From IMG/VR virus record IMGVR_UViG_3300050501_000322: a stretch of 64,000 nucleotides of DNA. One strand, given 5' to 3'. The position numbers and the translations under genes are program-made. Of this stretch, positions 25,936 to 52,686 are shown in pieces (positions within the stretch are counted from its first letter, which is position 1; each line of letters starts with the position of its first letter). Under the pieces are notes generated by a model, which saw nothing but the letters and a program-made list of their open reading frames with translations, was not told the DNA's origin and did not search any database. This stretch comes from a virus.

Positions 25936-28227
25936 GTGCTCGGCCAGACGCTCCAGGTAACGCAGCGCAATCATCCGACAGGAGAGGCCGGGGTTTTTAG
26001 CTCCTTGGAGCAGGTCGCGCGCCGAGTTTCTCAGGGATCGGTTCACCCGAAGGTTCGAGCTTGGTCGATTGAGCAGCTTGACAGGGCTCGAAAAGTCAAC
26101 GGCATTCCCTGCAACACCGATCGGCAGCGTGCGCAGGTTCTTCTGAGAGCCGTTCAGAAAAAGCTTTGGGTTCCGGACCCAACGCACAGCGAATACATGG
26201 TCGGCGCGCATCTCATGGCGTGCGACCGGTCGACGAAGGACGAGATCTGCTTTTTGAGCGGAGACTGTTTTGCAGAGGGCACGCTGATGCTGGCTCTCGG
26301 TCACGAGTTCGTTCCGGTAGAGCACCTGAAACCTGGAATGAAAATCTGGGGACTCGATCGATGGTCGGAAGTACAGCAGGTCACGTACAAGGGGACGCTC
26401 TCGGTCGATTACATTGAGCTGAACAATGGAGGTCAGCTCAAGCTCACCGGCGACCATCACGTTTACGTACTCGACTGCCGCGAGCATCCGATGCTCAGCG
26501 AAGACGGATTGGCGCTGCCTGAGGATCGAGCTTGGCGCGCTCCGAGCGAGGACAAGCCTCGTAACGGTAACGGGTGTTCTTGCGATCTTTCGGCGCGCGA
26601 TGAAAAGCGCATCCGAGTCTCCGAGCTTCGACGCGGCATGGTCTTGCCGACGCCAGAGCGAATCGCGTTCGGCCGAGAGGCGCTCGATCCGAAGCGTGCG
26701 TACGTCGAGGGGCTTTTTATTGCTGACGGTTGGGCCGAGAACTACCGTTTCGCCATTAGCGGCCAAGACAATTGCCCGAAGGAGGAGCAGAAGCGGGAAG
26801 TTCAGAAGATCTGCGAAGACCTTGGTCTGCACACGCGCTGGCATCGAAAATATTTGGCTGTGAATGACAAGGAGTGGGCGCTGCGAATGCAGCTCATGGG
26901 TAACGGAGCCACGAACAAGCACTTCTTGTCGCTTGATCTGAACGAAGACGCTGCTCTCGCTTCGCTCGTGGGCGTGATGGCGGACAGCGGCAAGAATACC
27001 AAGGGCGAGGGACGAACTTTCACGACGACGTCCCGGCTTTTGGCGCTCCAGGTTCGGGTGTTGCACAAGATGTTTGGAACGGATTGCGGATCACGTCGCA
27101 TCGAGAATCACGGGGGCTTGGGCAGCAACGCGATCTATCGTCTTGGCACTCGACCAACCAAGAGCATGCTGCTTCGCGTACGATCCATCGAGCGCGATGT
27201 GGCGGAGCTGCCGTGTTGGGATATCCAGACCGACGATCATCGCGTCTACTTGCCTGAGCACGACGTCACTGTATCGCAGTGCGACGATCTAGTTATTCTG
27301 CTCGGCTCTTGTTTCTTGTCGGTCGGTCTGAATGTGATGGTTGTAGGCCACGCCTACGGATCCTCAAAAAATATTTCTCACGTCCTCACGGCCGTTCGTG
27401 TTGACGGTCGATGGCACTACGCCGACCCGACCCCTGATGACTTCAATCTCGGTGAGTGTGTCGAATTTTCTCGCGAGCGCATTTTGAGCGTTCCGAACAT
27501 TCAAGTTTTGTGCGACGACGATGTTTGTTTGTCCGACAAGACGGCGTATCACCCAGAAAAGAACGACTTCGTGACCGAGGGCTACTCAGTTGGCGTCGAC
27601 GGCGTGCCGAAAAATGGCAAGCCAAAATTCTACTGGCTCCGAAAACCGACTCCCGAGATGCTCGGTCAGACTTTGAAAGAGCGGGGCGAGGCGGTGATGG
27701 ATGCTTGCCTCGACGTGAGTCTTCGGGCTGACGTCTCGACGGCCGCGGCTCGCGAGCGTTCGTTCGGCAGCGGCGCTCGTTGCGCGGCTGACGCCTATTG
27801 CGCGACGTTTGCCGTTCCTCCCGGAATTTGCTCGACGGTTGTCGGTCCGGTGGCTGACGCTATCGCAAATCTCTGGAGTGGCATCTTCGGCGGTGATCCG
27901 TCGGTTGACTGCTCGAAGGTGAGCACGTTTGATCCCTGCCACGACTGCAAGCTCCTCGCCGAGTGCGCTAAGCGGTACCCGATTCCTCCGGGTTTCCCAA
28001 ACTACCTCGAGGATCAGATCAGGACCCAGAACATCGCCCGGTGCCTGAGTGAGACGCGGAAGTCTTGTTACGAGGCTGAGCGAAAGAGGATTGCCGCGGC
28101 GACGCTCGAAGTTGCGCACCGAGCCGCAGCGGACGCGAAAAAGAAGCAGGATCAGAAGAAGCTCGTGGCCTCCGTTGGCGTCGGGGCAGCAGCCGGCGCG
28201 GCGCTGTGGTATTTCTGGTTGCGGTAA
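25936..28227 (+). CDS. transglutaminase-like cysteine protease interrupted by an intein; C-terminal TM anchor
   Basis: After splicing reads SGD|CDDLVILLGS...SHVL...YADP (Cys-His-Asp triad); ends AGAALWYFWLR. Confidence 0.85.
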   Translation: MLGQTLQVTQRNHPTGEAGVFSSLEQVARRVSQGSVHPKVRAWSIEQLDRARKVNGIPCNTDRQRAQVLLRAVQKKLWVPDPTHSEYMVGAHLMACDRSTKDEICFLSGDCFAEGTLMLALGHEFVPVEHLKPGMKIWGLDRWSEVQQVTYKGTLSVDYIELNNGGQLKLTGDHHVYVLDCREHPMLSEDGLALPEDRAWRAPSEDKPRNGNGCSCDLSARDEKRIRVSELRRGMVLPTPERIAFGREALDPKRAYVEGLFIADGWAENYRFAISGQDNCPKEEQKREVQKICEDLGLHTRWHRKYLAVNDKEWALRMQLMGNGATNKHFLSLDLNEDAALASLVGVMADSGKNTKGEGRTFTTTSRLLALQVRVLHKMFGTDCGSRRIENHGGLGSNAIYRLGTRPTKSMLLRVRSIERDVAELPCWDIQTDDHRVYLPEHDVTVSQCDDLVILLGSCFLSVGLNVMVVGHAYGSSKNISHVLTAVRVDGRWHYADPTPDDFNLGECVEFSRERILSVPNIQVLCDDDVCLSDKTAYHPEKNDFVTEGYSVGVDGVPKNGKPKFYWLRKPTPEMLGQTLKERGEAVMDACLDVSLRADVSTAAARERSFGSGARCAADAYCATFAVPPGICSTVVGPVADAIANLWSGIFGGDPSVDCSKVSTFDPCHDCKLLAECAKRYPIPPGFPNYLEDQIRTQNIARCLSETRKSCYEAERKRIAAATLEVAHRAAADAKKKQDQKKLVASVGVGAAAGAALWYFWLR
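26266..27279 (+). mobile_element. intein (338 aa) with LAGLIDADG homing endonuclease
   Basis: Block A CFAEGTLML, block B LTGDH, EN motifs VEGLFIADG and LVGVMADSG, TTTSRLLA, block F WDIQT, ends HDVTVSQ before Cys+1. Confidence 0.92.
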
Positions 28228-28367
28228 TGAAGCTCGTCTGGCTAGGTCAGGTCGACGTCCAGCGCGTTGATTCGCCGACGTGGACGCGCATGGAGAAGCT
28301 CACGGCCGCCGGGATCGCGCTCGGCGTGGCGAGCCTGATTTGGTCGATGTACCAGAGGGCGAAATGA
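28227..28367 (+). CDS. small membrane protein, WLGQ-tag family (46 aa)
   Basis: MKLVWLGQ...AGIALGVASLIW; coupled at both ends. Confidence 0.6.
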   Translation: MKLVWLGQVDVQRVDSPTWTRMEKLTAAGIALGVASLIWSMYQRAK

Positions 28368-29179
28368 ACCTTCAGTATCTCGCGGCTCCCGAGGATGTCG
28401 ATGTCGCGGCGTGGGGCAAGTACTTCCAGGGCGTTCGAAACCAACTTCAGGGCACGCTCGACGACATGCTCGGCGCGTATCGGACGTACAAGAAAATTCG
28501 CGAGTCGTTCGGGATGTCGTTGGTCGTCTCTCCCGGTGAGGGGATTTCTGCTGCGGGAGCCATCACTCGCTCATTGAGCCAGCAGGCGCTCGAGCTCGCT
28601 TCGATGGCGGACATTGGGATCATGGCGCTCGATGATGCGCTCGCGAACAAGAGAAAAATTGGTTGGGACCGAGCGGCCGAGACGTTTCAAATCGAGCGGC
28701 TGCCGACCGACGCGAGCAGGATCGAGACTCCGGGCGGAGTCCCGACGCTCATCTCGAACGCGACCAATCAACCGGTCCAGATCACGGGAACGCTCGGCAT
28801 TGCTCCGATTGTCTGGGTGGGGCTCGGCATCGCCGGCGTCGTCGTCACGGTGGGCGCGCTCTACACCGTGAACACGGCGATGGAGAGCGCGACAACGATC
28901 ATCCAGGAGCAGACGCGGAAGACGATCGCGCTGAAGTCGATGGAGCTCGTCGAGCAAGGCAAGGCGACTCCGGAAGAGGCGAAGAAGCTTCAGACCGCAA
29001 CGTACGAGGCGGCTGCTGATCTCGAAGCAGCCAAGGGAAGTGCCGCCGCGAAGACCGGGCTCACGCCCGACACAAACAAGACCATTCGGACCGTCGCGAT
29101 CGTCGCCCTGATTGGCGGCGGTCTCTACTTGGTCTCGAAGTTCGTTCCGAGCCGCGAGCCGCGGATCATTCCGGCTTGA
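28364..29179 (+). CDS. two-TM virion membrane protein
   Basis: MNLQYLAA start; TMs IVWVGLGIAGVVVTVGALY and VAIVALIGGGLYLV. Confidence 0.65.
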   Translation: MNLQYLAAPEDVDVAAWGKYFQGVRNQLQGTLDDMLGAYRTYKKIRESFGMSLVVSPGEGISAAGAITRSLSQQALELASMADIGIMALDDALANKRKIGWDRAAETFQIERLPTDASRIETPGGVPTLISNATNQPVQITGTLGIAPIVWVGLGIAGVVVTVGALYTVNTAMESATTIIQEQTRKTIALKSMELVEQGKATPEEAKKLQTATYEAAADLEAAKGSAAAKTGLTPDTNKTIRTVAIVALIGGGLYLVSKFVPSREPRIIPA

Positions 29180-29182
29180 GCG

Positions 29183-29743
29183 ATGGTCGCTCGCGTCGCC
29201 GAAGCCTGTAATTCGAAGCTCTGCGCGCACCTGCTCGTGCGCGGCGACCAGATCGAGTTCGTTTCACTAGAGCAAGCACGCCGTGTGAAGTGCGGTCCTA
29301 AGAGCTGCCCGACTGCGCTCGATGAAAAAGCCATGCCGAGCGACATCAAGCTCCCGCGAAGCTACGTGCTCGTCCACGACACGACGGGAGATCTGCTCAG
29401 CCGGTGCGAGTTTTACGTGGTCGATTACTATCCGACCAAAATTAACGACGTGTCAAAGCTACATCAAAATGACATCGAAGCTGCCCGTTCATATTTCTCC
29501 ATGGGAGACAATCCAACGGACACGATTCGCTTGGCAACTGGGCGCATCGTGCTGCCCAAAGGTCCGTGGAAGCGAACGGCCAAAATTAGGCTGATCCGCT
29601 ATCGCCGGCACAATTACGAGATGGGCTTCGAGCACCTCTACGATCCTCCCGTGTGGCTCTCATTTTCTGAGCGCTCGAGGGCGTGGAAATTGTCGCTACC
29701 AAATTCGTGCGTCGTGACTCAGGATGGATTCATAAAACCTTGA
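29183..29743 (+). CDS. hypothetical protein
   Basis: 186-aa ORF. Confidence 0.55.
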   Translation: MVARVAEACNSKLCAHLLVRGDQIEFVSLEQARRVKCGPKSCPTALDEKAMPSDIKLPRSYVLVHDTTGDLLSRCEFYVVDYYPTKINDVSKLHQNDIEAARSYFSMGDNPTDTIRLATGRIVLPKGPWKRTAKIRLIRYRRHNYEMGFEHLYDPPVWLSFSERSRAWKLSLPNSCVVTQDGFIKP

Positions 29744-29745
29744 CG

Positions 29746-29775
29746 TTGACAGTTTGAATTGCGCGAGACCATAAT
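29746..29775 (+). promoter_or_regulatory. sigma70-like promoter for the core/capsid operon
   Basis: TTGACA (29746-29751), 18 nt, CATAAT (29770-29775). Confidence 0.45.
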
Positions 29776-29893
29776 GCGACACACAAGGGCGTGGCTCCGT
29801 ATCCGGCAGCAGTTGAGATCGCGAAGACCGAATCCGGTCTCGTCGAACGCTGCCATTGCGGTGAGCGTTGCTTCGAAAGAGGAGAACCCCACA

Positions 29894-31372: not shown

Positions 31373-31450
31373 TTTTTCAACAAAGACCAGTAACCAAGAA
31401 CTGGGAGCGACCTGGTACAGGAACCTGGGAGCTCCCGAGGACGAGATCAG

Positions 31451-32749
31451 ATGCAGAAGAAGACAGCACTCACCAAGAGACTCTCGGGCAAGGAGTCGAT
31501 CGTCGCCAAGCCCGGTGACTTTCAGAGTCTCTCCTCGATCAAGGGTCTCGGGCAGATGCTCGGGCAGGCCAATCAGTACAAGATTCCGACGTACTACTAC
31601 GACTACACGTGCTTCGATCTCCCGCTCACGGACGAAGAGTTCGACGCGGAGTTTATGAGCACGCGGAACGTCTTCGACTGCGGACCCGGGACCGAGGTGA
31701 ACTGCGGCCGGCAAACCAACGCGCTCTGCGGCTCGGGCGTCGGAGCGCCGTTCGTGGCGACCGGCATCTGCATCCTCGCCATCGGCGAGGGGCGCTCGTT
31801 CGCGATCCACGGCGCGACCGTGCCTGCGCCGACCGCGGCCGGCTCGGCTCAGCCTGAGCTCCAGTCCGTCGCGCTCACGACTCCTGGAAACCTCCAGGGT
31901 GTCGTAGACATCAACGCCTCTCCGGCCGGAGTCGGCGCGCTTGCCGCGACGCTCTGGTGGGGAGGTCCGACGCACCTCTTCATCGAGAAGTACTTCCAGG
32001 CTTTCCGCCTGAATGTGCTCATGAACCGCCGATTCTTGTTCGTCGACGAGGCGCTTCAAGATGTCGGCATGTGCCCGAACATCCCGACCTTCGAGGGTGC
32101 CTCGAGCTCGCAGATCCCGACCCAGCCGTTCATCCGCGCGGTCAACGACGTCCTCAGCGAGAAGGGTCAGACTCGCCGGTTTCTTCCGGCCAACACTGGA
32201 GTCGCTGGCACCGGTCCCGACTGTTTGCCGCCCCCCATCGCCGGCGTCACTTACGGTCACAACCAGATCCAGCACCTGGCGAACAGGCTCTACTGCTTCC
32301 CGCAACCGTTGCTATTTTTGCCGGGTATGCGGTTCGATATCCAGTTCGTGCCGATCGAGGACGCGGCGTGTTTCAGAGCACTCCGGAGTGCAGTCACCTT
32401 CAACTGCCAGGGTCTCGACGAGAACTTCGGCGCCGGCATCAACAACGTCACGGCCACGGCATCTTGCGGCACGAGCTGCACGGTTCCCGGTGGCCGCATC
32501 TGCCTCGGTGTCATCCTGAAGGGCTACGAGCTCTGGCCTTCGGCGTGCATCGAGTACATGCAGCAGTACGTTTCGGCGGGCAGCGTCACGGCCGCGATGG
32601 TCGCTGGCGTTCCGGCCGGTCGCCAGCTTCTCGATCAGGCAATCAAGAAGGGTTACGATTTGGCGACGATGCCGAGTGGCCAGAAAAACGAGAATCCGGG
32701 CCGTCTCGCTGGCATCTTGAACACTAGGGAGCCGAACCCGAACACCTGA
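31451..32749 (+). CDS. candidate major capsid protein (jelly-roll type)
   Basis: Beta-rich 432 aa after the Arg-rich gene; final strand ICLGVILKGYEL; strong hairpin immediately downstream; no HK97 features. Positional and compositional inference only. Confidence 0.5.
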   Translation: MQKKTALTKRLSGKESIVAKPGDFQSLSSIKGLGQMLGQANQYKIPTYYYDYTCFDLPLTDEEFDAEFMSTRNVFDCGPGTEVNCGRQTNALCGSGVGAPFVATGICILAIGEGRSFAIHGATVPAPTAAGSAQPELQSVALTTPGNLQGVVDINASPAGVGALAATLWWGGPTHLFIEKYFQAFRLNVLMNRRFLFVDEALQDVGMCPNIPTFEGASSSQIPTQPFIRAVNDVLSEKGQTRRFLPANTGVAGTGPDCLPPPIAGVTYGHNQIQHLANRLYCFPQPLLFLPGMRFDIQFVPIEDAACFRALRSAVTFNCQGLDENFGAGINNVTATASCGTSCTVPGGRICLGVILKGYELWPSACIEYMQQYVSAGSVTAAMVAGVPAGRQLLDQAIKKGYDLATMPSGQKNENPGRLAGILNTREPNPNT

Positions 32750-32768
32750 TTTCGAGGTCCATTTTGAA

Positions 32769-32796
32769 GGGGCGTCACCGCTTGGTGTGACGCCCC
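32769..32796 (+). terminator. GC-rich stem-loop (attenuator or mRNA stabiliser) after the capsid candidate
   Basis: GGGGCGTCAC-N8-GTGACGCCCC, perfect 10-bp stem, no U-tract. Confidence 0.6.
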
Positions 32797-32808
32797 CCGG
32801 AGAAGCGC

Positions 32809-33498
32809 GTGAACGCACCTGCCATCGTCAAAGGCGCCTCGATTCTCAGGCCGGAGACCAAGATCTACGGCGTGGGGCTCGGAGAGCTGGCTCTGGCCGA
32901 CCCTAGGCTCGCTCGGAGCTTTGCGCTCCGTCCGGACCTTTTCGGGACCTGCACACCCGCGTGCGGTTGGGGCGGGATCGAATGGGTAAACATCTCCGGC
33001 TGCTTCACCTCTGGAGCAATTCAGACCGTCAAGGGTGAGGTCTGCGGCATCACGACCGATCTCTGGGTGCGGTTCATCAAATACACGGTGCGCCGGCCGA
33101 ACGCGTTCGCAGGAAATATCCTGAAGGCGCAGAGCGATTACTACAACGCGCTCAATCCCAACATTGACTTCACGCTCATCATCAAGAGCCGCTGCAAGTA
33201 CATTCTCTCGCCCGATCCAACGCCGCTCGAGAACATCACCGATACATTCGACTGCATCTGTCCGGTCGGTTTCGAGATTGGCTGCGCGGCGATCCTCCAG
33301 GCGGAGTTCACGAACAAGCGCGAGCTCGCGGCAGATGAGATCCCGACCGAGGTCGTCGTGACGCTCGGAACGATCCCGCTCCCGACGCCCTACGAGGCTT
33401 GCACGCAGATCGATGCGATTCGTGAGCTCGCGGCTCAGGGCCTGCTCCCGAGCGACTGCTGTCCTGTCGGTCCGGGCGGACACGCCGGGAGTTACTAG
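32809..33498 (+). CDS. putative second or minor capsid protein (beta-rich)
   Basis: 229 aa, Cys-rich, strand-like FTLIIK and EVVVTLG. Confidence 0.45.
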   Translation: MNAPAIVKGASILRPETKIYGVGLGELALADPRLARSFALRPDLFGTCTPACGWGGIEWVNISGCFTSGAIQTVKGEVCGITTDLWVRFIKYTVRRPNAFAGNILKAQSDYYNALNPNIDFTLIIKSRCKYILSPDPTPLENITDTFDCICPVGFEIGCAAILQAEFTNKRELAADEIPTEVVVTLGTIPLPTPYEACTQIDAIRELAAQGLLPSDCCPVGPGGHAGSY

Positions 33499-33503
33499 TC
33501 CCC

Positions 33504-34370
33504 ATGGAGCCGGGTAAGCTCCGGCTGGCGACGGGGACGCACGAGGATCTCCCGTGTGAGGTGGTCCAGATCCAGTCGGGGGCGTCGTTCGATGCAGACC
33601 TGACGGGTATCGGTGGCTCTCCCGCCCGAGGCGACATGGGCCAGACGGGCGTCGTAGTCCCGCCCGAAGCGACGACCGGCCAGGACAATCGCTACCTCTT
33701 TCGGCTTGCCGTCGTCACGATCCCGAGCGGGTCGGCTATCGCCATCCGCGGGCTCATGCAGGCAGCGACGATCCGCGCGCTCGTCACGACAACTGCGACG
33801 ATCAGCGGAGCGACAGTCACGGGTCCGACGATTCCGTTCGAGCAGGACATCACGAGTCCTTTCTGGCACTTACCGTTCGGTAACATCAGTTGGCACCTCC
33901 GGCACAAGCAAACGAAGGCTGCCGCCGACGTCCATGACCCCGCTCAGGTTGCGGGAACGAGTCCGAAGATCGATGGCATGGACGCCACGCTCTTCTACGC
34001 GCAGCTCTTTCCGTACGTGACGCTCCGAGGCGGCATACCTCCAGGGAAAGCTATCGGCGATCTCGGAACGTTTCGCGACATCCGCTTCCCGTGGGGCACG
34101 ATGGACTTCGGTCTCAGTCACTTCGTGATGGGACCGGGTCAGGTCGCGCTCTACGCTTCGGTGTTCCAGCCCGACCGGAGCGTCTGGACGTTGACGGGGG
34201 CCGGTGGGGCGACGGGACAGGTCGCGATCACTGCGCGGGACGGCTGGCGCGAAGAGGACAAGTTCTTCGCGAGTAATGGCCCGTCGAACGTCGTCTACGG
34301 GCGCGTCGCGGGAGCAATCATCTACGAGCCGTTCCCTTGCTGCGAGGCAACTTTCAAAGGAAATTTATGA
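33504..34370 (+). CDS. putative minor capsid or vertex protein
   Basis: 288 aa beta-rich ORF in the same operon. Confidence 0.45.
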   Translation: MEPGKLRLATGTHEDLPCEVVQIQSGASFDADLTGIGGSPARGDMGQTGVVVPPEATTGQDNRYLFRLAVVTIPSGSAIAIRGLMQAATIRALVTTTATISGATVTGPTIPFEQDITSPFWHLPFGNISWHLRHKQTKAAADVHDPAQVAGTSPKIDGMDATLFYAQLFPYVTLRGGIPPGKAIGDLGTFRDIRFPWGTMDFGLSHFVMGPGQVALYASVFQPDRSVWTLTGAGGATGQVAITARDGWREEDKFFASNGPSNVVYGRVAGAIIYEPFPCCEATFKGNL

Positions 34371-34903
34371 TGAAACTCCAGTGGCTAGGTCAGCCTTCGT
34401 ACGAGACCTGCTTCGCTCAGGACCCGAACTTTGACGGGTGCTGGCGAAACTCGTTCCGCCAGGCGCAGCTCGAGTGTGACCAGACGACTCAGGGCTACCC
34501 GAACTACAACGCTTGCGTGGAAGGTCGAGCTCGGCGGATCGCGAACCAGGTCTGCATTCCCGCCTGCGAGGCGTATCTCCGCGGCGCTGACGAGTATCCC
34601 TGGGGCGTCAGGAACAACAACACGTGCGAGCTTCAACGCGATCTCAACACGGCCCTCGTCGCAGAGGGTTATAACCCCATCACGGTTGACTGCGTGCTCG
34701 GTCCCGCGACCTGCGGCGCATCTGACGCTCTCGGTCGCGGCGTGCCGGCGGGGTGCGTCGGTCGGCCAAGGACTCCGCCGACGCGCGGGCCTCAGGGAAG
34801 GCCGCCTCCGGCGCCAGTCGCCAAGAAAAGCCGCGCCGGTCTTCTCGCAGCTGGTGCAGCTCTACTCATCGGTGGGCTCGTCATCTACGCGCAGGGCGGA
34901 TGA
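34367..34903 (+). CDS. WLGQ-tag membrane protein with a peptidoglycan-binding-like domain
   Basis: MMKLQWLGQ; LQRDLN...GY...VDCVLGPATC; C-terminal TM. Confidence 0.6.
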   Translation: MMKLQWLGQPSYETCFAQDPNFDGCWRNSFRQAQLECDQTTQGYPNYNACVEGRARRIANQVCIPACEAYLRGADEYPWGVRNNNTCELQRDLNTALVAEGYNPITVDCVLGPATCGASDALGRGVPAGCVGRPRTPPTRGPQGRPPPAPVAKKSRAGLLAAGAALLIGGLVIYAQGG

Positions 34904-35232
34904 ACTTTCGGTGGCTCTCCCAGTTCGGCTATCGGCTGGCTCCTACTTTGGCTCCAGCCGGGCCGCCCGCGTACGTGGTTCAGGCGTATCGCCCTGAGTC
35001 TCCGTCGGGCGGCAAGTGGCTCCTGATGACGCAGTACACGAAATATTTTCCAGACTCCAATTACGTCGGAGCCTACTTCGATGATCTCTGTCGCCGGGGA
35101 CGCTCACTCGCTCCGACGGTCACTTCGAAGAGTTTGTTCTCGAGTAAGACCAGGAATTTTCCGGTCATCATCAAGCAGTTCATGAAGGACGCTTCAGGTA
35201 ACTGGGTTCTCCAGAGGGAGTGTCAAAAATGA
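34900..35232 (+). CDS. WLGQ-tag protein
   Basis: MNFRWLSQ; ATGA coupling. Confidence 0.6.
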   Translation: MNFRWLSQFGYRLAPTLAPAGPPAYVVQAYRPESPSGGKWLLMTQYTKYFPDSNYVGAYFDDLCRRGRSLAPTVTSKSLFSSKTRNFPVIIKQFMKDASGNWVLQRECQK

Positions 35233-35414
35233 AACTCCGATTCGCTGGTCAAGACGAGAGTATTCCCGGCATCTCGATCGAGTGCGCGAAATGTGAGGTT
35301 TGGGAGAAGCAGACCGGTTCGGTGACGACCGGATGCCAGTGTGGTCCTGACCCTCTGAAGATCGGCGGGGCACTCGCGGTCGCGGGTCTGGTCGCTTGGT
35401 ACTTCATGCGATGA
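35229..35414 (+). CDS. WLGQ-tag small membrane protein
   Basis: MKLRFAGQ; 4 Cys; C-terminal TM. Confidence 0.6.
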   Translation: MKLRFAGQDESIPGISIECAKCEVWEKQTGSVTTGCQCGPDPLKIGGALAVAGLVAWYFMR

Positions 35415-35620
35415 ACCTCCAGTTTCTCTCCCAGTGTGAGCGCCACCAGGGACTCAATCCCGAGACCGGGCGCTGCTACGACGTCTGCAAACCGGGAGAG
35501 GTTTATAAGGCTCAAGAGGGATGCGAGCCAGATAGCTTCGTAAAGCAATACGGAGTTTTGATGGGCACAGCGATTTTGTTCGGGACGATTTTTTGGCTCT
35601 CAACGAGGCGCAGCAGATGA
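35411..35620 (+). CDS. WLGQ-tag small membrane protein
   Basis: MNLQFLSQ; Cys-rich; C-terminal TM plus RRSR. Confidence 0.6.
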   Translation: MNLQFLSQCERHQGLNPETGRCYDVCKPGEVYKAQEGCEPDSFVKQYGVLMGTAILFGTIFWLSTRRSR

Positions 35621-36246
35621 AGCTCCAATTCCTCGGGCAGCAGACGCTCGGCCTCGTGAGTGGCCACGCCTATCAGGCGCGCTGGCTTGTGCCCGGAACG
35701 GCGGGAGACTTTCCCTGCCCGATTTCGGACGCGAAGGTGAACCAGGTCAAGGACATCCTCGGAACTCTCGGCAGCATGGTGACTCCGCAGTTCGCGACTT
35801 CGAACTGGGAGATTCCGGCGGTCTTGAAGCTGCCGAACCAGACCGTATTCGATCAGCTTCGCTGGCCAGCGGACCGACGTGAAGTTCCGCCGCCGACCCC
35901 TCAGGGGACGTGCCCGATCTGGACTCAGTCGGTGACGACGAACGACTTCAATCTCCCGCTCGCGGCTGTGCAGAACGCGCTCGCGCCTCTCGGCGGCATC
36001 CTCCTGAACTTCTGGGACAACACGACCGGGCAGCGCATCTACGATCGACCAGCCGCTCAGTTTGTGCCGGGCGGTGGCCAGGTGTCGCCGGGTCAGCCGC
36101 CGATCGTTCCAGGAACGCCTCCTGTGGTTCAGCCGCCGCCTCCGCAGACTCAGCCTCCCGCGACCGAAGAGAAGAAGGTGAGTCCGCTAGTTTGGCTGCT
36201 CGGCGGTGCAGTCTTGATCGGGGCCGTAGTTCTCGTAACGAGGTGA
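35617..36246 (+). CDS. WLGQ-tag membrane protein, paralog family A
   Basis: MKLQFLGQ; GHAYQARW...WPADRR...FWD; Pro-rich stalk; TM. Confidence 0.7.
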   Translation: MKLQFLGQQTLGLVSGHAYQARWLVPGTAGDFPCPISDAKVNQVKDILGTLGSMVTPQFATSNWEIPAVLKLPNQTVFDQLRWPADRREVPPPTPQGTCPIWTQSVTTNDFNLPLAAVQNALAPLGGILLNFWDNTTGQRIYDRPAAQFVPGGGQVSPGQPPIVPGTPPVVQPPPPQTQPPATEEKKVSPLVWLLGGAVLIGAVVLVTR

Positions 36247-36247
36247 A

Positions 36248-36430
36248 GTGATGTACGGATTTTTGAGTGAGGGCGTCGTGGTGAGACCGAGACCGCGAAA
36301 GAAGCCGCGCGTACTCTTCGGCCTCGCCGCGACCGGAATCGGCTACGCGCTCGGCGGTCTGCCTGGCGCCGCGATCGGCGCGGCCGCGGCTCTTCTGAAA
36401 GGAAGGCTCGATGAAACTCGAGTGGGCTGA
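36248..36430 (+). CDS. small Gly-zipper membrane protein
   Basis: GIGYALGGLPGAAIGAAAA. Confidence 0.55.
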   Translation: MMYGFLSEGVVVRPRPRKKPRVLFGLAATGIGYALGGLPGAAIGAAAALLKGRLDETRVG

Positions 36431-36743
36431 GGCCCGATCAGCCGTTCGCGTGCCGAACGGATCTATTTCAACGACGAAGAGACCTGAGACGCTCGGCCAG
36501 GTCGAGGTGGGTGGAGTCATGATCCCGCCCTGGTACGGGACCATCGCGCTTTTAACCGACATTGCTGGCGCCTATCACGGCTACAAGCGTGGTCGAAAGC
36601 ACCCGGTGTGGAACGCGATTGCATGGAGCTTCGCTGGTTGGGTGTGGCCTATCACGATTCCGGTCATGATTGCGCAGGGGTTCGGGAAGCCGAGTGGGCG
36701 ACGGTCGAATCCGAGACGTCGGAGGCGACGTCGTCGGCGATGA
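36411..36743 (+). CDS. membrane protein with a C-terminal SNP-poly-Arg tail
   Basis: MKLEWAE...TLGQ; two hydrophobic segments; RRSNPRRRRRRRR. Confidence 0.65.
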   Translation: MKLEWAEARSAVRVPNGSISTTKRPETLGQVEVGGVMIPPWYGTIALLTDIAGAYHGYKRGRKHPVWNAIAWSFAGWVWPITIPVMIAQGFGKPSGRRSNPRRRRRRRRR

Positions 36744-37405
36744 ATCTCCTCTGGCTTGGCGCCCTCAGCCATCGCCAGGCCCGAGACACTCTCGAGGCCG
36801 CGTTCCGCGACGTCTTCGGTCGCGCCGGCAAACTTCCCGAGCTCCAGTACGCGCAGGCCGTGAGCCTCGGCGAGGGCGGCCAGTATGGCTCTGGCTGCTA
36901 CAAGAACAGGCCAACGGGCCAGAGTATCTGCGACACGAACAACTGGGGCGCGCTCCAGTGCCGGCAGCTCCCGCCGTGCCCCGAGGGCTGCGTCGAGGCG
37001 ACCGACACTCACCGCGACGGGACGCCCTACCAGGCCTGCTTCAGGACGTTCGCGACGCCAGAGGCCGGCGCGGCAGCCTATTTACGCAGGCTCTACGGGA
37101 GCGGCGACACGCTCCGGCTAGCGGGCGCCGGCCGGTACGAGGACGCCGTCCACGCCCAACGCGCGACCGGCTACTTCGAGCTCGACCCTGACAAGTACTG
37201 GTCGTCTGTCGACAAGAACGTCGACCGGGTCGCTGCGGCCCTTGGTGAGCCCCGAGGCGACCACGGAGCTGTTGCCCTGGTTGCCCGCGGCAGGGCACTT
37301 CTCCCCTACGCGGCGGCCCTGGCTGCCGTGGGGGCCGGCGCTTACTACCTCTTTCCCGACGTTCGGCGGCTAGCCCGGCGGGGTGCCCGGGTGGTAGGAT
37401 TGTAG
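36740..37405 (+). CDS. membrane-anchored glucosaminidase/muramidase (GH73-like), WLGQ-tag
   Basis: MNLLWLGA; LGEGG...NNWGA...FRTFATPEAG...GYF; C-terminal TM. Confidence 0.65.
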   Translation: MNLLWLGALSHRQARDTLEAAFRDVFGRAGKLPELQYAQAVSLGEGGQYGSGCYKNRPTGQSICDTNNWGALQCRQLPPCPEGCVEATDTHRDGTPYQACFRTFATPEAGAAAYLRRLYGSGDTLRLAGAGRYEDAVHAQRATGYFELDPDKYWSSVDKNVDRVAAALGEPRGDHGAVALVARGRALLPYAAALAAVGAGAYYLFPDVRRLARRGARVVGL

Positions 37406-37413: not shown

Positions 37414-37683
37414 ATGCGACTTCAATGGGTCGGCCAGTTTGAGATGCCCGTCTGCCCGCCGGGTTCATTCCTCGATCCCTTCGCCCGCATCTGCGTCTCG
37501 CCGACCCAGGGCCAGGTTCCCGCAGTCAACCCCAACATTCCTCCGCCGGTGACGACTGTCCCCGTGGTGACGGTAACGCCGACTCAGGCCGAAAAAGAGA
37601 GGAGCCGCGCTCTGGTCTACGCAGCGGCCATCGTGGGCGCGGGCATCGTGACGGCCGTCGTCCTCTCGAAGGTCGTGTCTTGA
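37414..37683 (+). CDS. WLGQ-tag small membrane protein
   Basis: MRLQWVGQ; CPPG...C; C-terminal TM. Confidence 0.65.
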   Translation: MRLQWVGQFEMPVCPPGSFLDPFARICVSPTQGQVPAVNPNIPPPVTTVPVVTVTPTQAEKERSRALVYAAAIVGAGIVTAVVLSKVVS

Positions 37684-38282
37684 TGCTCAAGTGGCTCGGC
37701 CAGGAGGCGGGTACGATCGACCTCGAGCGCGGGCACATCTATCGCGCGCGCTGGGTCGTCATGAACCCGATCCCGCTCGTGACGTGCGCGTCGCTACCGG
37801 TCGGTCCCATCATCCAGCAGATCTTGAACCTCCCGGGAACTGGCACCGCGTTCCCGGCTGACCTCCGGGTTTTCACGACGCTCTCCGGGCTCCCCTCCGA
37901 CTGGCCCGCTGACCGCCGCGACTTTGCAGGTAGAGCCGCGAGTGAGTGCGTTGTGTGGGCCGAGATGCGTGCGGCGAGTGATGTCCCCGGGTTCGAAATC
38001 AACGCCATGCAGCAGGCGCTCTCTCCGTTCGGTGGCCGGCTCATAGATTTCTGGGACGAGACGACCGACGAGGTGCTGATCGATAACCAGGTCGGTCGTC
38101 CAGGTCCTCCTCCTCCGACGACTCCGCCTCCGCCGACGACTGAGCCACCTCCACCTGGATCAAAACCGCCGACGCCGATGACGCCGCCACCGAAACCCAA
38201 AAAGAAGCCCTCTGAGGTCATCATCCCCTGGGCCCTCGTGATCGGAGGCGCGTCGCTGCTCATTCGAGTTCTGAGGGGCTAA
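37680..38282 (+). CDS. WLGQ-tag membrane protein, paralog family A
   Basis: MMLKWLGQ; GHIYRARW...WPADRR...FWD; poly-Pro stalk; TM. Confidence 0.7.
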   Translation: MMLKWLGQEAGTIDLERGHIYRARWVVMNPIPLVTCASLPVGPIIQQILNLPGTGTAFPADLRVFTTLSGLPSDWPADRRDFAGRAASECVVWAEMRAASDVPGFEINAMQQALSPFGGRLIDFWDETTDEVLIDNQVGRPGPPPPTTPPPPTTEPPPPGSKPPTPMTPPPKPKKKPSEVIIPWALVIGGASLLIRVLRG

Positions 38283-48668: not shown

Positions 48669-48741
48669 CAGGTTCGGGCCTCCTTTCAGGCTCGTATTCC
48701 TAGCTCCGCTCGGGCGACTGAGACCGTCCGAGCGGGGCGCT

Positions 48742-48769
48742 TTCAAGATTAACCGGTTGACGGTAGAAT
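48742..48769 (+). promoter_or_regulatory. possible promoter giving a near-leaderless mRNA
   Basis: TTCAAG, 16 nt, TAGAAT ending 6 nt before ATG 48776. Confidence 0.35.
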
Positions 48770-48775
48770 GCAAAT

Positions 48776-49258
48776 ATGGCTGTCCAGAAGGAGAAGATCT
48801 TCAAGCCCGCTCCCCCCAAATTCTCGAAAGAGCTCGCCGAGAACGGAGCGAACGACCCCGAGCCGCTGTTCCTCCGCCAGCTCATTGCCGGCGACAGGGC
48901 GCTCGAATGCCGGCGAGCCGGCGAGCTCGAGCTCGCCGCCGCAGAAGGTCTGAGTTCGGCCATCAAAGTCTCGGTCATCGCTCTTTTACTCTCGCTAGTG
49001 ATGGGCGGCGTCGTGCTGATCTTTCATCTGCCAGCGTGGGCCGTACTCGCTGTCTCGTCGGGAGGGATGGCCTCTGCGGTTCTCGTGTGCCTCTCTTTGA
49101 GAGCCGACGCCAAGAAGCGCGGCGACACTCTTCTGTTCGAAGCCAAGATGGCCGATATGGAAAGTCGAGCGCTCGTCGCCGAGGGCGAGGCAAAAATCAA
49201 AGTACTGCCGCTGCCGCCCGAAGAAGAGGAACCTCAGCCGGTCGTCAAGAGCGCCTGA
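48776..49258 (+). CDS. two-TM membrane protein
   Basis: Two adjacent hydrophobic helices. Confidence 0.6.
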   Translation: MAVQKEKIFKPAPPKFSKELAENGANDPEPLFLRQLIAGDRALECRRAGELELAAAEGLSSAIKVSVIALLLSLVMGGVVLIFHLPAWAVLAVSSGGMASAVLVCLSLRADAKKRGDTLLFEAKMADMESRALVAEGEAKIKVLPLPPEEEEPQPVVKSA

Positions 49259-49569
49259 TGATTCGGTGGCTCGGCCAGCAAGAGATAGATCCGTCGGAGC
49301 TCCTCCGACGACTGCCTTCTTGCTACTCCGAGGAGTTCCAGCTCTGCTTCGACGCCTTTGACTCTCCGAATGCCGACCCAAACACCTTCACGCCCGAGTG
49401 CAAGAAGTACTACGACCTTCGGGCTTCCACATCAAGAATGGTCTGGGACGCCGCGCTCGAAGCAATGCCTTATTGCCCGGCGCCGAAGGCCGAGAAGAGC
49501 AAAACCGCGCCGCTGTGGCTCCTCGGAGCGGGGTTTGCCGGACTCTTTCTCGGCACGCTAATCAGGTAA
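49258..49569 (+). CDS. WLGQ-tag membrane protein
   Basis: MIRWLGQ; 4 Cys; C-terminal TM. Confidence 0.65.
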   Translation: MIRWLGQQEIDPSELLRRLPSCYSEEFQLCFDAFDSPNADPNTFTPECKKYYDLRASTSRMVWDAALEAMPYCPAPKAEKSKTAPLWLLGAGFAGLFLGTLIR

Positions 49570-49580
49570 AAAAGGAGAGG

Positions 49581-49859
49581 ATGATGAACTACAGTTTTTT
49601 GGCCCAAGATGGAACGATGACAGTGACCCCGAGTTCATCGGGCTTTCGGGGCTTTTTCCGGCCTTTCACACGGTTCTTCTTTCCACCGCCTCAGTTTTTT
49701 CCCCAGAACGTAGCCGCCTGCATCCCCGTCGGACCGCTCCCGGCCGGAACGCTCGGCCGTGACGCGAACGGCAATCTCACCGTCGACGGCCAGACGTACT
49801 GCAATCCGCAGGCCTCGCGCGTGGTCGCTCGTCCCTACGGACCCATCTATTATCCGTGA
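49581..49859 (+). CDS. WLGQ-tag-like protein
   Basis: SD AAGGAGAGG; MMNYSFLAQ. Confidence 0.6.
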   Translation: MMNYSFLAQDGTMTVTPSSSGFRGFFRPFTRFFFPPPQFFPQNVAACIPVGPLPAGTLGRDANGNLTVDGQTYCNPQASRVVARPYGPIYYP

Positions 49860-50092
49860 CCGCGGAGAAGATCTTCGAGCAGAAGCTCCGTAGCAGGAAT
49901 CTCACTCAGACTGCTTTTCCGCCGCGGAGCGAGGATGACGATTGGGTCGTCTGGCTCTGGTGCATCGACGACCCGGGACTCGGGGCATTCGTCGGATCAG
50001 GCGAGAAGTACGAAGACGCCTTCAGGGCGGCGCTCGACGGCTACGATCAGAACGAGGCGGCACCGGAGGAAAAGAATGCCGCTACCGCCTGA
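49856..50092 (+). CDS. hypothetical protein
   Basis: 78-aa coupled ORF. Confidence 0.5.
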   Translation: MTAEKIFEQKLRSRNLTQTAFPPRSEDDDWVVWLWCIDDPGLGAFVGSGEKYEDAFRAALDGYDQNEAAPEEKNAATA

Positions 50093-50996
50093 CTGGCCAA
50101 GTGGCCACGGACCTGAGCGCGAGCGGCGCATCCTCGAAGAGGTCAAGCGCGGCAATTACGAGCTCGACTGGTGCGTGCTCGACCTCGGCGACCTGAAAGT
50201 CAAGGTCGGCTGCGACGCGCTCAAGATCAACGGCGTGCGCGTGAGCGCGAGCGCCGTCACTCAGCAGCTCATCGCCGATGAGCTCGGCGCGCTTCTTTTG
50301 ACGCCAAGGCTCTACGACTCGATCTGGCTCAAGACGGCACCGCAGAACCGACTCGACCCGAAGCCTCAGCCGATCACGAGCTCGACGGCGGGTACGATCA
50401 ACTACTCGGCGCGCATCGACGCTCACATCCAGCAGAAGGGCTCGACCGGAGTCCTCGCCAACGTCGGAAAAGCGTGGGTCATTACGAACAAGATCTTCAC
50501 GCCTCAGGCGCGCGCCGCCCGGAAGGCTGCAAATTATGGATGGATCCTGCCCTCGCAAGGTTTCCAGGGACTCCGTGGAGAAGCGAGCCAATCAACTCCT
50601 TCATTACTTGTCGTACAAGACGTTGGTACGGCGCACTCGTCAGATCATTCGGACTATTCACAAATCATCCTGCTCGCCGCGCGAGCCGCCCGCTTCGGCG
50701 AGTTACCGGTCGACCTCTCAGCGGTCTACACGGGTCACGCACCCGGAAACGCGCTCGTGAGCCACGAGGGGCCGCTCCAAGACTACCGCCAGCCGACCGA
50801 CGTCCCTCCCGACAGCGAGCCGCCTTCAACGCTTCCGGACCCAGGATCCAAGAGCACGAGCGGCACCCGGCGCGTCATCGTTGGAGCCGGATTAGGCGGC
50901 GTCATTGGTTACTTCATCGGCGAGACGACTGGAGCGGCCGTTGGAGGGGCTGTTGGGGCTATAATGGCCCTGGCGACTCGAAGGACCCTCGCATAA
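50076..50996 (+). CDS. membrane-anchored protein with a conserved bacterial His/Asp domain (candidate cell-wall enzyme)
   Basis: SD GGAGGA; DALKI...LLTP...K-WV...NYGW...VQ...H...HSDYSQ; C-terminal Gly-zipper TM. Confidence 0.55.
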   Translation: MPLPPDWPSGHGPERERRILEEVKRGNYELDWCVLDLGDLKVKVGCDALKINGVRVSASAVTQQLIADELGALLLTPRLYDSIWLKTAPQNRLDPKPQPITSSTAGTINYSARIDAHIQQKGSTGVLANVGKAWVITNKIFTPQARAARKAANYGWILPSQGFQGLRGEASQSTPSLLVVQDVGTAHSSDHSDYSQIILLAARAARFGELPVDLSAVYTGHAPGNALVSHEGPLQDYRQPTDVPPDSEPPSTLPDPGSKSTSGTRRVIVGAGLGGVIGYFIGETTGAAVGGAVGAIMALATRRTLA

Positions 50997-51007
50997 GGAG
51001 CAAGCGC

Positions 51008-51298
51008 ATGTACGACTTTCTAGAAGCCACTCCCCAGCAACAAATTCAGGCATGGAAGCGGCCAGAGCCCCTGTTCAGCGACGGAGCCACGCTCGCGCTC
51101 GGTGCAGCAGGCCTGGCGGCCGGCGGACTCCCGGGAGCCCTCGGCGCGGTCGTGATCACGCGGGTCGGAAACACGCTCGGTCAGACGCTCTGGGACGACA
51201 TCAAGAGTGAAGCTTGGCGCAAGCCGCTCACGGTCGGCGCGATAGGCGGCCTCGCGGTGGGCGGGCTCATCGGTTACATGGCCGGCAAGCGACGATGA
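51008..51298 (+). CDS. Gly-zipper membrane protein
   Basis: MYDFLEA; two Gly-rich hydrophobic segments. Confidence 0.55.
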   Translation: MYDFLEATPQQQIQAWKRPEPLFSDGATLALGAAGLAAGGLPGALGAVVITRVGNTLGQTLWDDIKSEAWRKPLTVGAIGGLAVGGLIGYMAGKRR

Positions 51299-51543
51299 AC
51301 CAAGGCCCGCTCGACGCTTGGACGGCTGCTCACGTCGCCACCGGGCTAGGCGCGGGAGCCGTCGGTCTCTCGTTCCCGTGGGCGATGGGCCTCGCCGTAG
51401 CCTACGAGGTCGTCGAGTACGCGCACGAGTGGCCGAAGGGATCGGTTCTCTTCGGGAGCAAGCGCCCCGAGAGCGGCGTGAACGTCGCCGTCGACCTCGC
51501 CGTGTTCGCGGCGGGGTGGTGGCTCGGGAGAAAAGTGCGATGA
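51295..51543 (+). CDS. small membrane protein
   Basis: DAWTAAHVATG...YEVVEY...NVAVDL. Confidence 0.6.
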   Translation: MNQGPLDAWTAAHVATGLGAGAVGLSFPWAMGLAVAYEVVEYAHEWPKGSVLFGSKRPESGVNVAVDLAVFAAGWWLGRKVR

Positions 51544-51770
51544 ACTTCCAGTGGCTCGGGATGGTCGGGATCTGCCCGGTCGAGCACTACCATTTGAACG
51601 ACCCGACGTGCGGGATGGGCGAACCACCTCCCGGAGCCCAGACCGGCCCGCACCGGCATGAAGGATCGACGACCTGCTACAAGGAGCGTTGCTGTGGCAA
51701 GCGAGCCCCAAGAGGAGCATGCGTCAGGCCGCACTGGCACCTGAACGATCCGAGCTGGAGACCGGCGTGA
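51540..51770 (+). CDS. His/Cys-rich WLGQ-tag protein
   Basis: MNFQWLGM; HxHLNDP twice; 6 Cys. Confidence 0.55.
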   Translation: MNFQWLGMVGICPVEHYHLNDPTCGMGEPPPGAQTGPHRHEGSTTCYKERCCGKRAPRGACVRPHWHLNDPSWRPA

Positions 51771-52391
51771 ATGGCGAACCAGGTCGAGCTCCCCGACGAC
51801 GTCGAGTTCTGGTCGCGCCAGCTCACCGAGCACGCGTTGTTCCTTCACCTGCTCTTCCAGGAGGAGCCGTGGCGGAGCCAGGCCAAGAGCCTCTACGACC
51901 TCTGGCAGTCGCCAGGCGGTGACGTCGAGCGAAAGACTACCGAGCTCGTCGCATTCAAGGAGCTCGCACTCGCGCGCCTAAAGAGCGGAGCTTGGCTCGG
52001 GTGGTGCCTTCCGAGCTTCCTCGAGCACATCTTGTTCGAGGCTAAGTACTTCCGCGCGCGCATCGGCGCGGGCACGCTCGCGAGCGGCGACTGTGCGGCA
52101 TGGTCAACGATCGTGCTCGGTCATGCACTCATTGGCCCAAAGCTCATCGACCCGAACGTTGAGCGCGAGGACGCAGCAGCGGGCGTTGCGAGCTCCATCG
52201 CTAGACTAATGGGCTGCTGCCCGTCTCCGAACCACGATTGTCTCTCGCAACTCGACAAGGAGTTCCAGAAGACCAACACCTGGGTGCGCGGCCTGCCCTC
52301 GGCCACGCACATCGTCCCGCCAACGCTCGCGGCGCACATCTTGCGCGAGAACGACCGCGGCTCGCTAATGGTGAAGAAAATCGGGCAATGA
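51771..52391 (+). CDS. DUF2935 family protein
   Basis: FWSRQLTEHALFL...LEHILFEAKYF; second half repeats with GHA...AHILRE. Confidence 0.75.
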   Translation: MANQVELPDDVEFWSRQLTEHALFLHLLFQEEPWRSQAKSLYDLWQSPGGDVERKTTELVAFKELALARLKSGAWLGWCLPSFLEHILFEAKYFRARIGAGTLASGDCAAWSTIVLGHALIGPKLIDPNVEREDAAAGVASSIARLMGCCPSPNHDCLSQLDKEFQKTNTWVRGLPSATHIVPPTLAAHILRENDRGSLMVKKIGQ

Positions 52392-52564
52392 TGTTCTACT
52401 ACCCGAACCCGAACCGGCCTCCAAAGAAGTGGTTTCGCGACTGCGTGCGCGGAGTGAGGGCACGCGGCGGAGCTCGAGACGCTGAAGCGGTCTGCGGAGC
52501 GGTCTGGTACCACGAGCTTTCGCCGGCTGCTCGCCGTCGCATCTCGAGGAAACGTGAGCGGTGA
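52388..52564 (+). CDS. small basic 'NP' protein (58 aa)
   Basis: MMFYYPNPNRPPKKWFRDCV...AVCGAVWYH; coupled at both ends. Confidence 0.55.
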   Translation: MMFYYPNPNRPPKKWFRDCVRGVRARGGARDAEAVCGAVWYHELSPAARRRISRKRER

Positions 52565-52686
52565 GGCTCCACTGGATCGGTCAGCAGGGCGAGGTTCCGC
52601 GAAGTAGCGCGGTCCCACTCGCACTCGCCATCGCCGGCGTCGGGCTCGTCATATTCTTTGCAACATTGAAACAAGTAAAAGAATGA
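52561..52686 (+). CDS. WLGQ-tag small membrane protein (41 aa)
   Basis: GTG start; MRLHWIGQ...LALAIAGVGLVIFF. Confidence 0.55.
   Translation: MRLHWIGQQGEVPRSSAVPLALAIAGVGLVIFFATLKQVKE

Follow-up and report, generated by a model that had tools for sequence, protein, structure and literature searches.

The window considered here is a 64,000-nucleotide stretch of viral DNA (IMG/VR record IMGVR_UViG_3300050501_000322) in which nearly all genes lie on the + strand. It has genes for replication proteins, a family A DNA polymerase among them, as well as a block of genes that probably form the particle. Directly downstream of the gene for a candidate jelly-roll capsid protein lies a series of open reading frames (ORFs) whose products share a short leader of six to eight residues, hereafter the tag, at the N-terminus. 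Seventeen + strand ORFs start in this way, according to the scheme M-x-[L/F/Y]-x-[W/F/Y]-[L/I/V/A]-[G/S/A/E]-[Q/A/E/M], and they are collected in Table 1 together with the capsid candidate, the protein adjoining it and an enzyme encoded upstream. The first-pass annotation of this DNA had named 15 of these starts, and two weaker ones, by coordinate, and every one of them is present.

Table 1. Tagged ORFs and associated features of the window (aa, amino acids; nt, nucleotides; TM, transmembrane segment; SD, Shine-Dalgarno motif; AF2, AlphaFold model; pLDDT, predicted local distance difference test; loci with the prefix L006 belong to a related virus).
Feature	Coordinates	Strand	Remarks
Predicted transglutaminase-fold Cys-His-Asp enzyme, intein-interrupted, C-terminal TM	25936..28227	+	candidate for binding or processing the tag
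Tag-like segment past the catalytic domain of the enzyme, FYWLRKP then PEMLGQT	27628..27672	+	the protein also starts MLGQT
Tagged ORF, 46 aa, MKLVWLGQ, C-terminal TM	28227..28367	+	start overlaps stop of 25936-28227 by 1 nt
Tagged ORF, 271 aa, MNLQYLAA (weak variant), internal and C-terminal TM	28364..29179	+	
Major capsid protein candidate, putative jelly-roll, 432 aa	31451..32749	+	AF2 pLDDT 75; 52 metagenomic homologs
Conserved 229-aa protein adjoining the capsid candidate	32809..33498	+	N-terminal arm (32863-32913) with degenerate motif GVGLGE (alignment A2)
Tagged ORF, 178 aa, M-MKLQWLGQ, Cys-rich body, Pro-rich linker, C-terminal TM	34367..34903	+	two adjacent ATGs, 34367/34370
Tagged ORF, 110 aa, MNFRWLSQ, no TM	34900..35232	+	
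Tagged ORF, 61 aa, MKLRFAGQ	35229..35414	+	tag plus residues 152-206 of 206-aa L006:4161
Tagged ORF, 69 aa, MNLQFLSQ, four Cys, C-terminal TM	35411..35620	+	
Tagged ORF, 209 aa, MKLQFLGQ, Pro-rich linker, C-terminal TM	35617..36246	+	paralog of 37683
Weak-variant tagged ORF, 59 aa, MYGFLSEG, Gly-rich TM	36251..36430	+	L006:5028 starts MFIYAFLSEG
Tagged ORF, 110 aa, MKLEWAEA, TM region, poly-Arg tail	36411..36743	+	ortholog L006:6590 starts MMQLEWLGA
Tagged ORF, 221 aa, MNLLWLGA, C-terminal TM	36740..37405	+	
Tagged ORF, 89 aa, MRLQWVGQ, C-terminal TM	37414..37683	+	
Tagged ORF, 199 aa, MLKWLGQ, Pro-rich linker, C-terminal TM	37683..38282	+	ATG 37683 preferred over the less likely TTG 37680
Tagged ORF, 103 aa, MIRWLGQ, C-terminal TM	49258..49569	+	
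Weak-variant tagged ORF, 92 aa, MMNYSFLAQ, no TM	49581..49859	+	strong SD upstream
Weak-variant tagged ORF, 96 aa, MYDFLEAT, two Gly-rich TM segments	51008..51298	+	
Tagged ORF, 76 aa, MNFQWLGM, Cys/His-rich, no TM	51540..51770	+	
Tagged ORF, 41 aa, (GTG) M-RLHWIGQ, C-terminal TM	52561..52686	+	

When the window was translated in all six frames the strict form of the motif, [LF].[WF][LIV][GS]Q, was found nine times, on eight occasions directly after M-x at a + strand start. The DNA pattern RTGNNNYTNNNNTKBVTNDSNCAR occurred seven times against 0.06 expected, a count reached in none of 100 dinucleotide-preserving shuffles, and the relaxed expression, anchored at ORF starts, retrieved 17 distinct ORFs on the + strand and one on the - strand, against a mean of 0.3 and a maximum of 1 among 30 shuffles; an extra + strand match at 17121 is likely to be due to chance. 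Three weak tags (36251, 49581 and 51008) keep to the scheme, with Tyr at position -2 and Phe replacing Trp. The conserved Gly is encoded by GGT (four times), GGC (four) and GGG (two), and the Leu that follows the Trp by CTC (seven), CTA (three), CTT (one) and TTG (two); constraint therefore acts on the peptide, as had been proposed. The Leu at position -2 is CTC in nine of the 11 tags that bear one. Every tagged start is either preceded at 7-13 nt by an SD-like GGAG, GAGG or AAGGA or overlaps the preceding stop codon (ATGA, TGATG, TAATG), and independent gene calls in related viruses also support these starts. A further M-E-L-R-W-L-G-V is encoded on the + strand at 36623-36646, inside the gene at 36411-36743 but in another frame; it lies in-frame upstream of the 36740 start, in an ORF spanning 36608-37405, and may be a relic, a chance occurrence or an alternative start that yields a doubly tagged isoform.

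The proteins that carry the tag span 41 to 271 aa, and several have Cys-rich bodies. On inspection of the translations, 14 of the 17 have a C-terminal hydrophobic helix, which bears out the earlier statement that most do (it is lacking in 34900, 49581 and 51540); this TM tail often follows a Pro-rich linker and is itself followed by one to three basic residues. Tag and C-terminal TM are associated, being combined in 23 of 42 tagged proteins as against 24 of 187 others (odds ratio (OR) 8.2, p=3e-8). The bodies had been described as otherwise unrelated, and this stands for most of them: when the tags were stripped and the proteins compared all against all by blastp, 35617 and 37683 emerged as the sole clear paralogs (1e-22), to which the description does not apply, and the other matches fell in Pro-rich linkers or TM segments. 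A Pfam scan of 10 tagged proteins returned no match. None of the 17 translations has an N-terminal hydrophobic stretch, a twin-arginine motif or a lipobox, and the proteins therefore look tail-anchored. Sec, Tat, lipoprotein and prepilin signals are ruled out, the first two as previously argued, as the first 20-30 residues are polar and have no RR, no lipobox Cys and no G|F followed by a hydrophobic helix; a C-terminal signal of sortase or exosortase type is likewise ruled out, for although a TM and short basic tail are present no shared motif (LPXTG, PEP or GlyGly) precedes the TM. The WXG100 motif of type VII secretion was rejected on position and context, and the LC3-interacting region and clathrin-box motifs on their different spacing.

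Related loci were fetched around homologs of the capsid candidate and of the enzyme from JGI, ENA and Logan assemblies, together with one contig of a Gemmatimonadaceae metagenome-assembled genome (MAG). The motif is retained in these viruses, with variants of the tag in all fetched loci except one (L011, which has no clear W tag). In nine related loci, using the databases' own gene calls, hydrophobic-x-W-[LIV] occupies 30 of 1773 positions within the first nine residues versus 69 of 43567 elsewhere (OR 10.9, p=7e-19). The form of the tag differs from locus to locus: MKLEWLGQ, MTLQWLGQ, MKLEFLGQ and MRFQWLGQ in L006, MIEWLGQ, MSVEWLGR and MMIEWIRE in L001, AIVEWLPDEP and AICEWIDE in L002, VRWL or VRWI in L009 and L010, FKWLG or FKWID in L004, VEWLG in L012 (once in tandem, L012:6381 having two tags), IRWLGQ and IEWLGS in L014, LRWSGQ and LRWLGQ in L017, and a double tag, VTWVK...QWLG, in L013. 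Many relatives have a second Leu/Val-Gly 5-10 residues past the Trp (EWIDESPGTVG, RWLSEPGTLG, RWLEVISGRLG), whereas W-L-G is contiguous in the window.

The closest comparison is with L006, where identity to the window is about 80% for the capsid protein and 86% for the 229-aa protein, while the bodies of tagged orthologs are only 29-44% identical and yet retain five to seven of the first nine residues. The ortholog of 34367 (L006:3249) keeps seven of the nine tag residues with a remainder 32% identical, and in the family of 35617 the tag is found in eight of eight metagenomic homologs and in the L006 ortholog, down to 38% identity. The tail of 35229 is 71% identical over 55 aa to residues 152-206 of L006:4161, a protein whose junction at this place reads GTLGQ|DESIPG and which has an internal V-R-W-L-G-S. 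The suggestion that the tag plugs interchangeable cargo into a common scheme has thus held up, in that the tag outlasts the bodies and 35229 consists of little but the tag and the last 55 residues of a 206-aa relative.

Several further observations were made on the relatives. The Gemmatimonadaceae contig (L017, DASRAP010000433.1, 73.7 kb) was the sole enzyme-family match in 185,579 species genomes and has the whole module, including its two tags; it offers a weak hint at the host phylum, or else is a mis-binned viral contig. At L009:10248-10817 and L012:10182-10880 the tag heads TM-anchored proteins with weak precomputed matches to Peptidase_M15_4 (L009) and SLT (L012), which would fit cell-wall-hydrolase-like entry enzymes borne on the virion. 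Other N-terminal motifs are shared by small proteins encoded upstream of the capsid gene, M-[ST]-Y-F-W-Q/H in L001 (2691, 4551, 6024 and 15923) and M-x-[YF]-A-R-F-S-N-P in L002 (5572, 6206 and 6694), and L004:8125 joins S-N-P-H-G-F to K-W-L-P; these sequences suggest that the relatives may have more than one class of tag.

The enzyme encoded at 25936 belongs to a family of at least 122 homologs in which D-C-D, two His and Y-A-D-P are invariant (alignments A3 and A4), with C112, H135, H145 and D160 unchanged in 50 sequences. The match to Pfam Transglut_core is weak (E 0.16) and a PDB sequence-profile search with the family gave no match, so that relatives came from the fold search alone. For the catalytic domain an AF2 model was computed from the A4 alignment on a homolog without the intein (P0071:1-225); its pLDDT is 95, and Foldseek matched it to 3isr, 2f4o and 3kd4 at E 4e-5 to 6e-4 and to PNGase in AFDB. 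Of the fold matches, 3isr and 3kd4 are putative cysteine proteases, and the others include PNGase, TGase, LapG, PeiP and PeiW (pseudomurein isopeptidases) and the CPR-C4 protease. The model thus places the enzyme in the transglutaminase-like superfamily, with a predicted Cys-His-Asp triad on the core fold. A paralog at 22125-23399 aligns over the domain but is without the D-C-D nucleophile and has Arg for the conserved H-V-L histidine (alignment A3); it ends in a TM and poly-Arg.

The core of the tag recurs in the enzyme itself. In 75 of 97 homologs hydrophobic-x-W-[LIV] is found 50-105 aa past the catalytic Asp (OR 20, p=5e-57), often in two copies of which the second is x-x-W-L-G-Q/E/A. Twenty homologs end within about 12 residues past the motif, and two (P0103 and P0108) end exactly at W-L or W-I. 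Among the six genomes carrying both parts in which the comparison was made, the variant on the enzyme matches that of the tags of the same genome, with E, R or Q before the Trp: tags IEWLG/IEWI and enzyme KIEWLGE in L001, VEWL/CEWI and RVEWLGV in L002, VRWI/VRWL and RIRWLGA in L010, and in L013 the double tags VTWVK...QWLG and the double motif VVWTKPRMQWLGQ. In L014 the enzyme ends ...WWLGSRGRRA after the first motif, and the overlapping next gene, which has a TM anchor, starts V-IRWLGQ with the second; in other genomes the two are fused. Boundaries of gene fusion, split and deletion therefore coincide with the motif, both in the L014 enzyme and in 35229 of the window as compared with L006:4161.

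The motif is also found in the 229-aa family, in which a variable N-terminal extension is followed in relatives by S-G-W-L-G-E, P-M-W-L-G-D, P-E-W-L-G-D or R-S-W-L-G-D and then by a conserved D-P-x-L-A. In the N-terminal arm of the capsid candidate (31514-31567; alignment A1, columns 30-70) the family as a whole has D-F-x-x-L-G-x-I-G and then W-A-K-I-P-T-Y-Y-Y-D, and the subclade of the window reads G-L-G-Q-M-L-G-Q, possibly one more site at which this code is used. The best structural matches of this candidate, obtained with VIA, are the capsid proteins of the internal-membrane viruses SPV1, PRD1 (P3), HCIV-1, HHIV-2, FLiP and P23-77, at Z scores of 5.4-6.5 that lie within the chance range of the tool, and Foldseek of the model against PDB gave no match at E<=0.001; the identification as a jelly-roll capsid protein is suggestive only. 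One 14-kb contig of a relative (L012:734-4780) has three capsid-candidate paralogs in tandem (446, 433 and 420 aa), and its capsid could be made of several major proteins.

The particle-forming block found no relatives in Pfam, in PHROGs (10 module proteins) or among GenBank phages: tblastn searches of 50,697 phage records with the capsid candidate, the 229-aa protein, a 288-aa protein and the enzyme domain as queries returned no significant match, a viral-contig search with the capsid candidate gave no relative, and neither Pfam nor PHROGs detected portal, terminase, scaffold or prohead protease families in the proteins tested. The link to a cultured virus, Salisaeta phage SSIP-1, comes through the enzyme: its profile matches gp34, which carries the annotation of a structural protein, with a score of 33.9 bits and with Cys, one His and Asp in register. 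SSIP-1 has no tail and contains an internal membrane (PMC6356626). Like the enzyme, gp34 has a C-terminal TM, and like the window SSIP-1 encodes many small C-terminally anchored proteins, but none of its proteins has a W-L-G tag and no SSIP-1 counterparts of the capsid candidate or of the 229-aa and 288-aa proteins were detectable. The homology to gp34 is the only experimental anchor for regarding the block as a putative particle module with membrane proteins, and it is together with the many TM proteins that it suggests a lipid membrane in the particle. That the tagged proteins are associated with the virion is indicated only indirectly, by gene position beside the capsid candidate, by the motif in the arm of the 229-aa protein and by the enzyme/gp34 homology.

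It is clear, then, that a short leader is shared by 17 + strand ORFs of the window. The reading that we favour, tentatively and at somewhat less than even confidence, is that the tag is an assembly leader, which a single partner common to all the tagged proteins would recognize and which the enzyme encoded at 25936 would probably trim afterwards, at or close to L-G(-Q). It would be an N-terminal leader specific to this virus lineage, its core a hydrophobic residue, any residue, Trp or Phe, and Leu or Ile, fused to Gly-Gln in the window and often accompanied by the second Leu/Val-Gly in relatives, and it would mark the tail-anchored membrane proteins of the particle-forming block. The viruses that use it may represent an undescribed group of bacterial viruses with jelly-roll capsids, distantly linked to SSIP-1 and probably tailless and lipid-containing. 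With no signal peptide and a C-terminal anchor, the tagged N-terminus is expected to lie on the cytoplasmic face of the membrane, which would be the side covered by the capsid in viruses with an internal membrane. There a single partner could read the tag during assembly, and the conserved Cys-His-Asp enzyme could remove it afterwards. We infer this topology, as well as virion incorporation, recognition by the enzyme and cleavage of the tagged proteins, from the sequences. A short, lineage-wide and fast-co-evolving motif on tail-anchored proteins, on a capsid-adjacent protein and on a cysteine enzyme is what one expects should one partner read many proteins. The support for a link of the tag to the 25936 enzyme is specific but circumstantial, and the sorting, docking and cleavage roles mooted in the first-pass annotation would all be compatible with the data. 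Trimming is favoured because module boundaries fall at L-G-Q, because of the second hydrophobic-Gly element and because the fold family of the enzyme is rich in proteases.

A number of points weigh against this reading. It is hard to see what the removal of only six or seven residues would serve. Some lineages do not keep Gly and Gln (EWIDE, RWLNE, KWIDN), and since only W-L/I is universal the scissile bond cannot be placed. Where the enzyme stops exactly at the motif, a docking tag would explain this just as well as a product-like end. The fold also covers the PeiP/PeiW cell-wall isopeptidases of archaeal viruses, amidases and true transglutaminases, so that the enzyme could be a virion-borne entry lysin and itself tagged cargo. 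In L011 the enzyme is present in a genome without clear W tags and is itself without the W motif, a pattern that would be compatible with co-variation and yet shows the motif to be dispensable there. To these are added the low score of the capsid-fold assignment (Z ~6) and the failure to find a family match for a packaging ATPase among the proteins scanned, which were only part of the window ORFs.

Docking alone is possible and nearly as likely as docking followed by trimming. The tag would in that case be a short linear motif that inserts Trp and Leu into a pocket, either in the capsid lattice or in some other protein of the assembly, and so tethers the membrane proteins and the enzyme under the shell, without being cleaved. 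It is favoured because W-L/I alone is universal, because the motif is independent of position, occurring at N-terminal, internal and C-terminal places (the last in enzyme tails such as the 20 that stop shortly past it), and because it stands in the ordered N-terminal arm of the 229-aa protein ahead of D-P-x-L-A. There is a precedent in vaccinia, where the jelly-roll protein D13 binds the tail of A17 in a pocket rich in Phe (PMC8971458). What docking alone leaves unexplained are the fusion, split and deletion boundaries at L-G-Q and the second downstream hydrophobic-Gly element of many relatives, both of which the assembly leader with trimming takes in.

Two other explanations do without a viral reader, and both appear improbable. 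According to the first the shared N-terminus and TM tail are the inherited ends of a single expanded paralog family, retained because they help in some general way, for instance in expression or membrane insertion, and read by no dedicated partner. The genes are small and in tandem, 35617 and 37683 are true paralogs, and repeated tag-coding DNA could cause deletions like that in 35229; the other 15 bodies, however, are without similarity, the tags of relatives sit on different enzyme domains (SLT in L012, Peptidase_M15_4 in L009, both weak precomputed matches), the motif is also present in the unrelated enzyme and the capsid-adjacent protein, and it is conserved far more than the bodies. The second, of about the same low probability, would have the tag read by an insertase, chaperone, protease or secretion system of the host. 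Tail-anchored proteins do need targeting and one related contig was binned to a Gemmatimonadaceae MAG, but the tag matches no known signal of the Sec, Tat, lipoprotein, prepilin or sortase type, and its variant changes between lineages together with the motif of the viral enzyme.

Very unlikely, though consistent with a fold that matches transglutaminases and enzymes directed at Gln/Asn amides, is that the enzyme is a true transglutaminase for which the Gln of W-L-G-Q serves as acyl donor, cross-linking the N-termini to Lys of capsid or membrane proteins. Gln is at position +3 in 11 of the 17 window tags and in many enzyme tails, but whole lineages have Glu, Asp, Ala, Ser or Pro instead, which makes such a reaction on the tag unlikely, and most characterized bacterial members of the fold are hydrolases. 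We give slightly less credence still to the picture of some 17 membrane-protein N-termini covalently stitched to capsid or membrane partners, as an enzyme-made link between membrane and shell. A nucleic-acid signal at gene starts (a re-initiation element, downstream box or recombination site) would account for a motif that always begins at the start codon, for the many starts that overlap an upstream stop (ATGA) and for the recurrent CTC at position -2, but it is rejected as highly improbable because third codon positions vary at the Gly and the Leu and because the motif also occurs far from starts, inside the enzyme and the 229-aa family, and relatives retain residue classes rather than bases.

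Parallels with known systems are instructive. In phage T4 a short N-terminal peptide common to unrelated, fast-evolving proteins, the capsid targeting sequence, directs them into the assembling particle (PMC3012670). The window likewise has a short N-terminal peptide on 17 ORFs whose bodies are unrelated except for one paralog pair; T4, however, has an HK97-fold head, a scaffolding core, a serine protease and soluble cargo, as against a jelly-roll capsid candidate, membrane-anchored cargo, another motif and a cysteine enzyme of predicted transglutaminase fold as the candidate protease. The T4 sequence is removed by the head protease. The N-terminal tail of vaccinia A17 tethers the jelly-roll D13 lattice to the viral membrane, and its proteolytic processing releases the lattice (PMC8971458). 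This resembles the role proposed for the tag in that the N-terminal tail of a membrane protein would be coupled to a jelly-roll lattice, but it involves one protein in a eukaryotic host, and not some 17 proteins of a bacterial virus with L-G-Q in place of A-G-X. The A-G-X site of vaccinia is cut by I7, an adenain-like protease (clan CE). Such processing is not matched by the window, with its transglutaminase-fold enzyme model and L-G-Q tags, and L-x-W-L-G-Q fits neither form of the adenovirus protease consensus, (M/I/L)-X-G-G|X or (M/I/L)-X-G-X|G, the spacing of hydrophobic residue and Gly being off.

In bacteria, LapG cuts near the N-terminus of the adhesin LapA and releases it from its anchor (PMC3032545). 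The 25936 enzyme shares its fold class (Foldseek probability 0.99-1.0) but has no similarity to it at the level of sequence, and the tagged proteins are only putative substrates. LapG is periplasmic and calcium-dependent and acts at a di-alanine site. Double-glycine leaders, too, are short N-terminal peptides; they are removed by cysteine proteases, the C39 papain-like peptidases (PMC10885120). A further point of likeness is that they are defined by spaced hydrophobic residues and a terminal Gly. They differ in being 15-30 residues long, in ending GG, GA or GS and in being coupled to ABC export. No ABC transporter of this type and no C39 domain was seen in the window. The system described here is not a member of the T4, vaccinia or LapG systems, since motif, enzyme class, capsid or cargo type differs each time, and a limited literature search brought up no description of a comparable tag for bacterial viruses with a jelly-roll capsid or a membrane.

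Tailed phages (T4) and eukaryotic viruses of the jelly-roll type (adenovirus, poxvirus) are known to use shared leaders for loading or releasing proteins of the particle. The group to which the window belongs is large, 122 homologs of the enzyme and 52 of the capsid candidate having been returned, and its tagged proteins evolve much faster than the capsid protein, as expected of factors for entry or interaction with the host. If the assembly-leader reading is true, the membrane proteins of these virions could be predicted from sequence by a simple rule, the tag would provide a testable handle on the coupling of capsid lattice to internal membrane, and it could serve as a portable label with which to load foreign proteins into such particles.

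Two observations concern neighbouring genes. After the last tagged ORF, at 52683-54034, the window encodes a collagen-repeat protein (Pfam Collagen, E 3e-6) and then a concanavalin/Laminin_G_3-like protein (E 2e-4), both of which are candidates for a fibre or spike. Finally, inteins interrupt other genes in relatives (L014:4985-6632 and L015:2318-4879, for ThyX and a UvrD-like helicase), and with the intein of the 25936 enzyme such elements seem common in this group of viruses.

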